Shown here: piece after piece, positions 41,289 through 42,734 of the stretch
Layout of the letters: every line of letters begins with the position of its first letter
How positions within the stretch are numbered: position 1 is the stretch's first letter
Source: a virus
Taxonomy: Duplodnaviria > Caudoviricetes
Length of the DNA stretch: 53,473 nt
IMG/VR virus record: IMGVR_UViG_3300012359_000030
Coordinates: 1-53,473 of that record
Direction: 5' to 3' (one strand)
The notes under the pieces: generated by a model
What the model was told of the DNA's origin: nothing
The model's input: only the letters and a program-made list of their open reading frames with translations
The model's database searches: none
Program-made: the position numbers and the translations under genes

Positions 41289-42734
41289 ATGAAATCAGAT
41301 ACTAAAGACAAGAAAATTATCATCCACCAGACGAAGACGCTCTCGTTACGGATCGTCAAGCCACAGTCTATTCCCATGGAAGAATTTACCGATCTAGTGC
41401 GTTATCATCAAATGATAATCTTTCCTGTCTACAACAATGGAGCAATAGATTTATATAAAAAGCTTTTCAAAGCAAAAATCCAAAAAGGCAACGAGGCTCG
41501 GGCGATTAAATACTTCATGAATAAGATAGTATATGCTCCTATTGCCAACACAGTGAAAAATTCCTATATTGCCCTTGGGTATTCCACTAAAATGCAGAGT
41601 TCTTTTTCAGGAAAGCGATTATGGGATTTGCGTTTTGGAGAGGCTACACCGCCCACGATTAAAGCAGACTTTCCCCTTCCTTTCTATAATCAATCAGGAT
41701 TCAAGGTTTCGTCGGAAAATGGAGAATTTATAATTGGCATTCCCTTTGGTCAATATACAAAAAAAACTGTTTCTGATATCGAAAAAAAAACTTCCTTTGC
41801 ATGGGATAAATTTACCCTTGAAGACACCACGAAAAAGACTTTAATAGAACTTCTCCTATCTACAAAAACCAGAAAAATGAATGAAGGCTGGAAGAACAAC
41901 GAAGGGACCGAAGCCGAAATCAAGCGGGTAATGGACGGGACATATCAGGTTACAAGCCTTGAAATACTTCAAAGGGATGATAGTTGGTTTGTGAATTTCA
42001 ATATTGCTTATGACTCATTAAAAAAACAGCCTGATAGAGATAAGATTGCGGGTATTCATATGGGAATTACCCGTCCATTAACTGCCGTTATTTATAACAA
42101 TAAATATAGAGCGCTATCTATCTATCCCAATACCGTCATGCATCTTACCCAAAAACAACTCGCGAGAATTAAAGAACAACGCACCAACAGCAAATATGCT
42201 ACAGGAGGACATGGTAGGAATGCGAAAGTCACCGGAACCGATACCTTATCAGAAGCTTACCGTCAGAGGCGGAAAAAGATAATTGAGGATTGGATCGCTT
42301 CAATAGTGAAATTTGCTATAAATAATGAGATAGGAACTATCTATCTCGAAGACATTTCAAACACTAACTCATTCTTTGCAGCACGTGAGCAAAAACTGAT
42401 CTATCTCGAAGACATTTCAAACACTAACTCATTCCTATCCACCTACAAATATCCTATATCAGCCATTTCCGATACACTTCAGCACAAACTCGAAGAAAAA
42501 GCTATACAGGTAATCCGTAAAAAAGCATATTACGTCAACCAGATTTGTTCTCTCTGCGGTCACTATAATAAAGGATTCACTTACCAGTTCAGAAGAAAAA
42601 ATAAATTCCCGAAAATGAAATGTCAAGGCTGTCTGGAAGCAACTTCTACCGAATTTAATGCGGCAGCAAATGTAGCCAATCCTGATTATGAAAAATTACT
42701 CATCAAACACGGACTTTTACAACTAAAGAAATAA
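41289..42734 (+). CDS. cas12f: Miniature type V effector, Cas12f/Cas14a-like, RuvC catalytic residues substituted
   Basis: TKTLSLRI N-terminus, GGHGRNAK bridge motif, CSLC/CQGC Zn finger, FNAAANVA; adjacent array and cas4/1/2. RuvC-I reads GIHMG, RuvC-III reads STEFNAA. Confidence 0.88.
   Translation: MKSDTKDKKIIIHQTKTLSLRIVKPQSIPMEEFTDLVRYHQMIIFPVYNNGAIDLYKKLFKAKIQKGNEARAIKYFMNKIVYAPIANTVKNSYIALGYSTKMQSSFSGKRLWDLRFGEATPPTIKADFPLPFYNQSGFKVSSENGEFIIGIPFGQYTKKTVSDIEKKTSFAWDKFTLEDTTKKTLIELLLSTKTRKMNEGWKNNEGTEAEIKRVMDGTYQVTSLEILQRDDSWFVNFNIAYDSLKKQPDRDKIAGIHMGITRPLTAVIYNNKYRALSIYPNTVMHLTQKQLARIKEQRTNSKYATGGHGRNAKVTGTDTLSEAYRQRRKKIIEDWIASIVKFAINNEIGTIYLEDISNTNSFFAAREQKLIYLEDISNTNSFLSTYKYPISAISDTLQHKLEEKAIQVIRKKAYYVNQICSLCGHYNKGFTYQFRRKNKFPKMKCQGCLEATSTEFNAAANVANPDYEKLLIKHGLLQLKK
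42339..42434 (+). repeat. 36-bp perfect direct repeat inside cas12f separated by 24 bp
   Basis: ATCTATCTCGAAGACATTTCAAACACTAACTCATTC at 42339-42374 and 42399-42434. Confidence 0.95.

Follow-up and report, generated by a model that had tools for sequence, protein, structure and literature searches.

A phage-borne Cas12f with a substituted RuvC site and its own adaptation genes: a candidate RNA-guided binder that does not cut

What can a CRISPR effector do for a virus once the residues expected to cut DNA have been replaced? We asked this of a Cas12f-like gene in a 53,473-nt stretch of viral DNA (Duplodnaviria; Caudoviricetes; IMG/VR record IMGVR_UViG_3300012359_000030, positions 1 to 53,473; hereafter the window), where the gene is followed by a structured non-coding region, a CRISPR array and cas4, cas1 and cas2. 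An earlier note on this DNA had read the protein as a Cas12f whose RuvC domain had been inactivated in nature, and had predicted an RNA-guided binder or repressor that a phage might use for adaptive CRISPR interference (CRISPRi). Our analysis somewhat favours a reading of this kind, in which the effector would silence its targets by occupying them and would receive its guides from an adaptation module of its own; that it has lost the ability to cut is inferred. Below we set out the evidence on the catalytic site, its relatives, the rest of the locus and the phage, and weigh three other explanations as the evidence that bears on them appears.

The effector is a Cas12f. Its reading frame is open over 41238-42734 on the plus strand and, from the ATG at 41289, encodes 481 amino acids without interruption, a product identical to a database protein (P0001) from a 57.7-kb contig. 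In a phmmer search of all PDB chains, the top match was Un1Cas12f1, also called Cas14a.1 (7l48, 7c7l), at E 8e-68 over residues 21-467, and the next matches, to AsCas12f and other Cas12f proteins, lay at about 1e-16. An AlphaFold2 model built from a 38-sequence alignment had a mean predicted local distance difference test (pLDDT) score of 85.8 and a predicted template modelling score of 0.69, and its best Foldseek matches in the PDB were 7c7l_A (1.7e-32) and then 7l48. The protein is also nested among Cas14a-like proteins in our tree, so that homology to Cas12f is found in both sequence and fold. About 65 N-terminal residues of Un1Cas12f1 (chain positions 20-85) have no counterpart in the effector; we take this segment to be part of the N-terminal zinc-finger domain.

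The catalytic site is where the protein departs from its nearest solved relative. In the phmmer alignment, the RuvC-I stretch IAGIHMGI of the effector pairs with IGGIDVGV of Un1Cas12f1, which puts His257 at the position of the first catalytic Asp, and the RuvC-III stretch STEFNAAANV pairs with NADYNAALNI, which puts Glu455 at the position of the last. The RuvC-II Glu is retained as Glu354 (GTIYLEDIS against GTVQMENLE). The triad of the effector is thus His257-Glu354-Glu455 where Cas12f has Asp-Glu-Asp, with two of the three catalytic carboxylates substituted, and both replacements named in the earlier note are borne out. The chain of the 7c7l ternary complex itself reads GIAVGV at the RuvC-I site. 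In the AlphaFold2 model, strand 249-257 terminates at His257 and strand 348-354 at Glu354. The remainder of the C-terminal region is intact, as the note had also said of the reading frame and zinc finger: TNB and RuvC-III can be followed as far as residue 470, all four cysteines of the CxxC..CxxC finger are kept, and C420, C423, R435, C445 and C448 are nearly invariant among the 38 aligned sequences. Arg435 pairs with the Arg of Un1Cas12f1 YRKKNKF, the pocket Arg. The Pfam family PF07282 scored 25.9 bits on the effector, slightly below its cutoff of 26.3.

Substitution of the first Asp is rare in this family. We aligned 154 proteins, namely the best 150 of 331 hits at E <= 0.001 in a representative library together with P0002-P0005. 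The RuvC-I column held D in 129 proteins, H in five, N in five, E in three and M, S, T and Q in one each, with eight gaps, so only 17 of the 146 aligned relatives with a residue at this column have lost the Asp. The RuvC-II column held E in 145 proteins, K in four and I, N and D in one each (two gaps), and the RuvC-III column D in 141 and E in five (eight gaps). The five carriers of His are the window protein, P0002, P0003, P0074 and P0144. The last two stand apart: P0074 (His/Lys/Asp) is an unrelated TnpB/Cas12f-like protein that falls outside the clade of the window protein in FastTree, and P0144 (462 amino acids, His/Glu/Glu), likewise unrelated, is an orphan that sits outside the Cas14a-like group in the same tree, on a long branch whose placement is unsure. 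We considered P0144 as a member of the clade and rejected it on these two grounds, its orphan status and its long branch outside that group.

The remaining His carriers form a clade with the window protein. P0002 (495 amino acids, 51% identity to the effector) reads GIHAG at the site, and P0003 (447 amino acids, 47% identity) reads GIHMG and has Asp at RuvC-III; a further member, P0008, is a 202-amino-acid fragment (54% identity) that begins past the His position and has Glu at RuvC-III. His is therefore retained in all three clade members that cover the RuvC-I site, at identities of 47-51% and in full-length reading frames free of stops, and Glu at RuvC-III goes with it in two of the three full-length members. 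Within the clade, identity was 0.47-0.55 over residues 1-245, 0.50-0.56 over the RuvC part (246-400, leaving out an insertion described below) and 0.60-0.67 over TNB and RuvC-III, the best conserved part of the protein. This is not the pattern of a pseudogene, which would have spoken against the prediction of the earlier note: the His is common to relatives as distant as 47-51% identity, and RuvC and TNB are conserved within the clade like the rest of the protein.

The phylogeny places this clade beside proteins that have lost the site altogether. We ran IQ-TREE on 31 rows under LG+C20+F+G4 by posterior mean site frequency (PMSF), with a bootstrap that had not fully settled. The His clade was recovered with support of 99/98, and its sister (90/84) was a clade of three truncated proteins, P0014, P0022 and P0023, itself supported at 100/100. 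These are 366-370 amino acids long, lack both TNB and RuvC-III at their C-terminal end and carry M, S or T in the RuvC-I position, so that no catalytic residue remains, and their N-terminal halves closely resemble those of the His clade. Both clades are nested among proteins with the full Asp-Glu-Asp set: P0007, P0006 (98/95) and P0010 (95/98). A truncated, dead sister and a position among Asp-Glu-Asp forms fit a loss of cutting before the two clades split. We asked whether the truncated clade might be the sigma-E-associated dead Cas12f (dCas12f) of PMC13472631 and found no support for this in the sequences, since the best PDB match of P0014 was Un1Cas12f1 (1e-34) and the dCas12f structure 9n9c was absent at E <= 0.01.

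Rates of change in the RuvC domain point the same way. We compared pairs of proteins by the ratio of their RuvC identity to their N-terminal identity; because the pairs share branches and are not independent, we use these ratios descriptively only. Among active proteins, the median ratio was 1.27, and 9 of 105 pairs fell below 1. Between the His clade and active proteins, the median was 0.83, with 35 of 45 pairs below 1, and inside the His clade it was 1.06, with none of the three pairs below 1. We read this pattern, as far as the sequences indicate, as rapid change in RuvC concentrated on the stem of the His clade, after which constraint returned.

Elsewhere in the tree, P0004 and P0005, together with L003 and L004 (all Glu/Lys/Asp), were placed beside an active protein with support of 100/99, and to judge by their sequences this is a separate, independent inactivation. 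On the 192-kb contig L004, the dead Cas12f gene lies at 7845-9272 (GIEIG/QMKNL/SDFNEA, Glu/Lys/Asp; likewise in L003), directly after two LuxR-type response regulators and a sensor kinase, and a two-repeat mini-array lies at 9847-9950, about 600 bp downstream of it. No cas1, cas2 or cas4 was seen in the stretch of L004 that was read. Several searches for relatives of the window effector yielded little. Protein alignment found none in IMG/VR, and tblastn against GenBank phages returned only distant TnpB-like genes at 21-24% identity. Among the matches listed in a metagenome scan, the only relatives were L001-L004 at 29-30% identity, and the contigs of P0002 and P0003 were not among them. Scans of GTDB genomes returned one metagenome-assembled genome of Nitrospirae at 29% for the effector and none for the truncated clade.

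A second feature of the gene lies directly beside the catalytic Glu. An exact 36-bp copy at 42339-42374, which holds the Glu354 codon (42348-42350), is followed by 24 unrelated bp at 42375-42398 and a second 36-bp copy at 42399-42434. The duplicated unit is exactly 36 bp, because the bases flanking the two copies differ. At the protein level, residues 351-362 (IYLEDISNTNSF) are repeated at 371-382, which adds 20 residues directly after the RuvC-II strand. P0002 and P0003 do not have this insertion, and residues 360-381 of the AlphaFold2 model have pLDDT values below 50, with the insertion looped out and disordered.

We excluded an assembly artefact as the origin of this structure. In two soil metagenome runs, X1 and X2, the 36-nt piece had a depth of 14 and 13 against 7.3 and 7.0 for its flanks, and the junction of copy, insert and copy was bridged by an 84-nt contig in both of these runs and by a 90-nt contig in a third, X3. 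No joint that skips the insertion was listed in the four runs, of which three carry it and X5 had no cover there. X1 and X2 may be one data set, as their contig sizes are identical. A slipped tandem duplication was also set aside, as it would not leave unrelated bases between the copies.

The size of the duplication suggests another origin. A target duplication of repeat length is a hallmark of integration by Cas1-Cas2, and a staggered integration event would give just such a repeat-length duplication around an unrelated insert. The 36 bp equal the length of the CRISPR repeat at the same locus, and the 24-bp insert, which has no match elsewhere in the window, is one base below the shortest spacer (25 nt). 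Outside the array, this is the sole exact direct repeat of at least 20 nt with a spacing of 40-90 nt in the 53 kb. The 36-bp copy is identical to the CRISPR repeat at 17 of 36 positions in register, a level that 1.27% of the 36-mers in the window reach in either orientation. We think it somewhat more likely than not that the structure is the scar of an off-target spacer integration, a reading arrived at post hoc. Whatever its origin, the tolerance of 20 extra residues beside the catalytic Glu suggests weak constraint on the RuvC pocket.

The insertion also bears on a less generous view of the locus, namely that it is on its way out: a recently inactivated effector without function, its RuvC disrupted by two point changes and the 60-bp insertion. 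One base change suffices for either substitution (codons CAT and GAA), the insertion beside the Glu is recent, the array is short, and neither a spacer target nor RNA evidence turned up. A decaying gene would have to be squared with a His that relatives only 47-51% identical also have, in reading frames that are intact and full-length, with a conservation across domains that is like that of active pairs, and with an insertion that preserves the frame and that a confident model loops out. None of the three adaptation genes is broken, and over the island the contigs of four soil runs show not a single differing letter. We give this view a very small probability, the smallest of those weighed here.

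The guide-RNA parts of the locus lie downstream of the effector. The array consists of six 36-nt repeats (GTCTACAACTCATTGATAGAAATCAATGAGTTAGAC) and a seventh that keeps only its first 22 nt, separated by spacers of 25, 27, 27, 27, 25 and 30 nt. We placed the leader on the effector side, because the degenerate last repeat is at the other end of the array. Upstream of the array, the segment 42735-43000 folds better than shuffled sequences on either strand (z -2.38 on plus, -2.18 on minus), which makes its first part a candidate scaffold for a trans-activating CRISPR RNA (tracrRNA), and this is followed by a full-length anti-repeat, a degenerate inverted copy of the repeat. The strand of the guide RNA is favoured as plus by the order of genes in an active relative, L001 (effector, scaffold and array on a single strand), and by the degenerate repeat at the far end, and as minus by the energies of the duplex between anti-repeat and whole repeat, which are -27.0 kcal/mol with both on the minus strand and -22.4 kcal/mol with both on the plus strand. 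The repeat forms a hairpin of its own at -15.5 kcal/mol, and its ends, read on the minus strand, may resemble the conserved ends of type V-A repeats, as would suit the V-A-type cas4 and cas1. No Rfam family was found at gathering scores, nor any in 42650-43600 at E <= 5, and the scaffold region showed no significant similarity on either strand to intergenic regions of L001, L004 and L005 (best z 2.1, for the reverse complement). Directly after the anti-repeat, a 22-nt palindrome, TACATTCATATAATTGAATGTA, at 42987-43008 contains TATAAT and may serve as a promoter or operator element or mark where a tracr-like RNA ends.

We searched for targets of the spacers in several collections. The window held none, the best match being 13 nt, and blastn of the whole array against GenBank phages and PLSDB plasmids returned only chance-level matches of repeat plus spacer (E 0.03 and 0.4). 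Exact scans of IMG/VR with spacers 6 and 1 (two of the six), and of GTDB representatives with spacer 6 (one of the six; exact matches only were searched), gave no match, and the exact repeat was found neither in IMG/VR nor in genomes. The array itself may vary in length. A 7,021-nt contig in X1 and X2, otherwise without differing letters, joins position 43113 to 43425 and so omits the five leader-side units, leaving the order leader, one repeat, spacer 6, degenerate repeat and cas4. No separate pieces with spacers 1-5 were listed in X1 and X2, whereas the analogous loop in cas12f is listed, and pieces in X3 cover spacers 5 and 6. A shorter array, either ancestral or produced by deletion, would give such a joint.

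An adaptation module, which the earlier note had described as intact, is present. The cas4, cas1 and cas2 genes all match their families; cas4 had no hit in Pfam. For cas1, the best model was TIGR04329 (cas1_PREFRAN) at 242.3 bits, below its cutoff of 300, and the generic TIGR00287 scored 142.4 bits, above its cutoff of 71.7. Cas1 shares the motifs GIEG, FYH and CDLMEP, in alignment, with the solved Cas1 8d3p; we take them to hold the catalytic Glu, His and Asp. We considered whether Cas4 was degenerate for want of C-terminal cysteines and dropped this idea, as the match to the V-A Cas4 model runs from one end to the other and scores over the cutoff. The Cas4 of L001, an active Cas14a-like locus, matches only the generic TIGR00372. 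A cas4 of the V-A family and a cas1 whose best model is V-A, set against the generic Cas4 of L001, indicate that effector and adaptation module have different origins and that the locus is chimeric; the V-A-like module would therefore have joined the effector by module shuffling. No open reading frame (ORF) in the window exceeds 708 amino acids, and none matched Cas12a. A search of IMG/VR with the window Cas1 gave no match. The Atlas clusters nearest to Cas1 were mostly from Bacteroidota, and two Atlas clusters of 357-365-amino-acid Bacteroidota proteins resemble the model of the effector, which is only a lead to the host.

These observations can be joined into a mechanism. The effector would assemble with a tracrRNA-like scaffold and CRISPR RNAs (crRNAs) from the six-spacer array and would still form R-loops on matching DNA, with no cut. 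Once bound, it would keep the target from being transcribed or replicated, in the manner of Cas12c, Cas12m and dCas12f, and the phage's own cas4-cas1-cas2 would provide new guides. We favour a binder because alanine mutants abolish cleavage, the first Asp is rarely replaced (17/146), the sister clade has lost the site and the insertion beside Glu354 is tolerated. The mutants in question carry Ala at D326 and D510 of Cas14a1 (10.1101/654897); by analogy with them, loss of DNA cleavage is what we would expect here, where the replacements are His and Glu. The rest of the system looks alive, to judge from the array, the anti-repeat, the structured scaffold region, the family matches of Cas4, Cas1 and Cas2 and the motifs of Cas1, and we read the 36-bp duplication and the array-length joint as signs that the integrase has worked. 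A fuller account, in which a phage runs adaptive CRISPRi with a His-swapped Cas12f that silences by binding, a borrowed V-A integrase has left two traces of its activity, and the clade is a living intermediate on the way to truncated dCas12f, is offered tentatively, and we would sooner doubt than assert it as a whole.

Several observations pull the other way. The sister relation of the His clade and the truncated clade has only moderate support (90/84) and is not resolved in FastTree. The spacer searches turned up no target for any spacer, and the joint in X1 and X2 may be a k-mer collapse at the repeats or a deletion. Chemically, Glu differs little from the Asp that it replaces, and His is able to bind metals. 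What remains of the pocket (Glu354, Arg435, Glu or Asp at 455 and the four Cys) is kept in every clade member that covers it, where a site no longer needed would be expected to drift, as it has in the truncated clade with its M, S and T. That His recurs at RuvC-I in P0074 and P0144 hints that this set of residues is favoured, and Altae-Tran et al. have argued that conserved, specific replacements in TnpB and Cas12 sites often mark a rearranged, active site (PMC10691335).

The pocket residues bring in the rival that deserves most attention, in which His257, Glu354 and Glu455, with Arg435, still cut something: DNA with another metal preference, one strand as a nickase, single-stranded DNA only, or the effector's own pre-crRNA, as in Cas12c. 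On this view the locus would remain a CRISPR system that cuts or, at the least, processes RNA. The conservation of the whole pocket minus the two changed residues across the clade, with TNB and RuvC-III as its best conserved part, is what such a site would call for, as is the reappearance of the His-Glu-Glu set in the distant P0144 and the pairing of Glu with His in two of three full-length members (the fragment P0008 also has Glu). The argument in print that a site can stay active when its replacements are specific and conserved (PMC10691335) applies here too, and there is a precedent in Cas12c, whose RuvC is kept for pre-crRNA processing only (10.1101/2021.12.06.471469). Against a rearranged site stand the rarity of replacements of the first Asp, the unusually fast divergence of RuvC on the stem of the clade, the sister clade that discarded the whole site and the 20 residues tolerated beside the catalytic Glu; P0003, with its Asp at RuvC-III, shows that the pairing of His with Glu is not strict. 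We consider a rearranged, working site unlikely.

If the effector is instead the binder that we favour, binding need not serve silencing. It could recruit a partner, as dCas12f does with sigma-E and Cas12k with a transposase, or act as a guide-RNA decoy, an anti-CRISPR against a type V system of the host. Both uses of dead effectors have been published (PMC13472631, PMC11656645), the decoy as a suggested role of a phage Cas9 whose RuvC is dead. The phage encodes an integrase, and its repeat and adaptation genes are unlike the usual partners of such an effector, so that cross-talk with the host is conceivable. For a recruiter, one would look for a partner, and neither the island nor Pfam scans of the 52 ORFs of the window (29 of them without a Pfam match) held a transposase, a family of rpoE or other sigma factors or any other partner; the C-terminal part that sigma-E-type dCas12f has lost is also retained here. 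A decoy would not need its own six-spacer array and cas4-cas1-cas2. We regard either role as highly improbable.

The element that carries the locus is a phage, as the earlier note had supposed, and the window is the genome of this soil phage. PHROGs and Pfam matches in the window include a portal, an SU10-type adaptor, virion proteins, a lytic tail protein and an endolysin (Table 1), and further matches are to NinG, to internal virion proteins and, weakly, to a small terminase. The CRISPR island (41161-45464, 4.3 kb, plus strand) sits inside a block of structural genes on the minus strand and has a G+C content of 0.359, compared with 0.399 for the rest of the window. Megablast of 30000-53473 against GenBank phages gave no match. 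Soil metagenome runs with the island came to ten rows from seven studies, two of the rows containing 0.88 of the sampled words; no RNA run was among the runs listed. The promoter-like site upstream of the effector is a consensus match only, and the region holds 24 such sites where 18.0 were expected from shuffles.

Table 1. Positions in the window of the CRISPR island's features and of the main phage genes.
Feature	Position	Strand	Evidence or remark
Promoter-like site (TTGTCA, 17 nt, TATAGT, TG before second hexamer)	41248..41276	+	10/12 consensus matches
cas12f-like gene, 481 aa	41289..42734	+	Un1Cas12f1/Cas14a lineage; RuvC triad His-Glu-Glu
His257 codon CAT, RuvC-I Asp position	42057..42059	+	Alignment to Un1Cas12f1 GIDVG
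60-bp in-frame insertion, 36+24+36 bp structure	42339..42434	+	Candidate scar of off-target spacer integration
TNB zinc finger C420, C423, C445, C448 and conserved Arg435 (42591-42593)	42546..42632	+	
Glu455 codon GAA, RuvC-III Asp position	42651..42653	+	Alignment to Un1Cas12f1 ADYNAA
Structured non-coding region, candidate tracrRNA scaffold	42735..42950	.	Folding against shuffles
Full-length anti-repeat, degenerate inverted copy of repeat	42951..42987	.	
Putative leader	42988..43113	+	Opens with 22-nt palindrome
CRISPR array	43114..43526	+	Six 36-nt repeats and a seventh keeping only first 22 nt
cas4, type V-A family	43534..44082	+	TIGR04328 cas4_PREFRAN, E 1.7e-45, 155.2 bits (cutoff 70), profile 1-174 of 178
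cas1	44086..45057	+	PF01867 (6.6e-48)
cas2	45059..45340	+	PF09827 (2.2e-17); TIGR01573, 51 bits (cutoff 24.5)
Portal	5-1474		PHROGs/Pfam
Integrase	13239-14252		PHROGs/Pfam
Endolysin	17095-17895		PHROGs/Pfam
Lytic tail protein	40501-41160		PHROGs/Pfam
SU10-type adaptor	52918-53331		PHROGs/Pfam

Three other regions of the phage genome drew our attention. At 1540-3487 on the minus strand, an isochorismatase-family hydrolase (Pfam 5e-45), a HAD hydrolase and a phosphoribosyltransferase are adjacent, and we guess that they form a nucleotide or NAD salvage set. At 18972-27151 on the plus strand, several sugar-modifying genes stand among ORFs without family matches: one for a glycosyltransferase, two for class-I methyltransferases and one for an NAD-dependent epimerase/dehydratase. 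Finally, two proteins of the structural region, of 271 and 344 amino acids (36157-36972 and 39470-40504, minus strand), have nearly identical C-terminal stretches of about 110 residues, which run from QPVTNVSLNPNRGTV to the end, and different N-terminal parts; by their sequences they look like paralogous fibre or receptor-binding modules.

Nuclease-dead, CRISPR-linked Cas12f has already been published (2023, 2026). Binding-only type V effectors are known in Cas12c, Cas12m, Cas12k, dCas12f and TldR; in the accessible parts of the literature, those described are chromosomal, plasmid-borne or transposon-borne, and most have no adaptation genes of their own. If the favoured reading is true, adaptive targeting without destruction is within the reach of a virus, the clade represents an intermediate stage on the published path from cutting Cas12f to dCas12f, and the effector is a natural compact DNA binder from the Cas12f lineage that has been engineered best. 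That His turns up at this position in separate Cas12f lineages raises the question of whether it marks a dead site or a metal site of another kind. Should the 36+24+36 bp structure be a scar of the integrase, it would be a rare natural record of off-target spacer integration, in a gene where it also reports weak constraint on the RuvC pocket.

Among known systems, the effector is closest to Un1Cas12f1 (type V-F1; 7l48, 7l49, 7c7l), with which it shares the order of domains, the CxxC..CxxC finger of TNB, the RuvC-II Glu and the pocket Arg, and from which it differs in the RuvC-I His, the RuvC-III Glu, the missing N-terminal segment and the 20-residue insertion. Like the active relative L001, it has an array downstream with a non-coding scaffold region between; unlike L001, with its generic Cas4, the window has adaptation genes that look to be of the V-A family, and the element is a phage. 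In E. coli, integration away from the array is reported to found neo-CRISPR units (Nivala et al. 2018, as cited in PMC7054753, 10.1101/148544 and PMC6698737). The structure in the effector gene resembles that non-canonical integration (Nivala, Shipman and Church 2018) in having a duplication around a spacer-sized insert outside an array, in a genome with Cas1-Cas2, and differs in being natural, in frame and inside the system's own effector gene.

Large branches of Cas12f with altered catalytic sites, and a path from Cas12f to dead TnpB in Bacteroidota, were described in 2023 (PMC10691335), and progressive inactivation of RuvC on the Cas12f tree, with the sigma-E-associated dCas12f of Bacteroidota, in 2026 (PMC13472631). 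The window protein is like these (PMC13472631, PMC10691335; 9n9c, 9n9m) in being derived from Cas12f, mutated in RuvC and predicted to bind DNA by RNA guidance. Unlike the sigma-E dCas12f, which is truncated at the C-terminus, it retains TNB and RuvC-III, and unlike the dCas12f-sigma-E operons, its locus has a six-spacer array, adaptation genes and a phage setting; 9n9c was absent from the phmmer hits of the effector at E <= 0.01 and ranked 20 in Foldseek. Also described there is a separate group of putative dCas12f encoded close to CRISPR arrays, with guides that in some cases match efflux-cassette promoters (PMC13472631): as in the window, a predicted dead Cas12f lies beside an array; the spacer searches for the window gave no target. 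We found no phage-borne dead Cas12f in print in our searches, which took in passages of PMC11656645 and PMC12607003, with PMC13472631 and PMC10691335 taken without their figures and supplements.

The earlier note had likened the effector to Cas12m and TldR, a comparison that is fair as to mode of action, but the dCas12f lineages and Cas12c are closer precedents. Cas12c is large and belongs to another lineage, and V-C loci also keep cas1, which would make them a precedent for binding-only interference combined with adaptation. Cas12c (V-C) protects by binding without cutting and has an intact RuvC that is used for pre-crRNA processing (10.1101/2021.12.06.471469); the effector described here is likewise of type V and predicted to act by binding only, with its RuvC residues changed, unlike those of Cas12c. 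It is phage-borne, and the accessible text of that paper does not describe Cas12c on phages. In Cas12m, found on plasmids and in some prophages, RuvC was gradually inactivated and silencing is by binding (PMC11656645, PMC10691335). Cas12m (V-M) is, like our effector, small and altered in RuvC, but it is a separate lineage: Cas12m2 ranked 25 in Foldseek (E 1.3e-9, TM 0.29) and was absent from the phmmer hits in the PDB. TldR is a nuclease-dead, RNA-guided repressor of the same superfamily (10.1101/2023.11.30.569447), derived from TnpB and working with fixed guides, without array or adaptation genes, whereas the phage locus described here has both an array and cas1.

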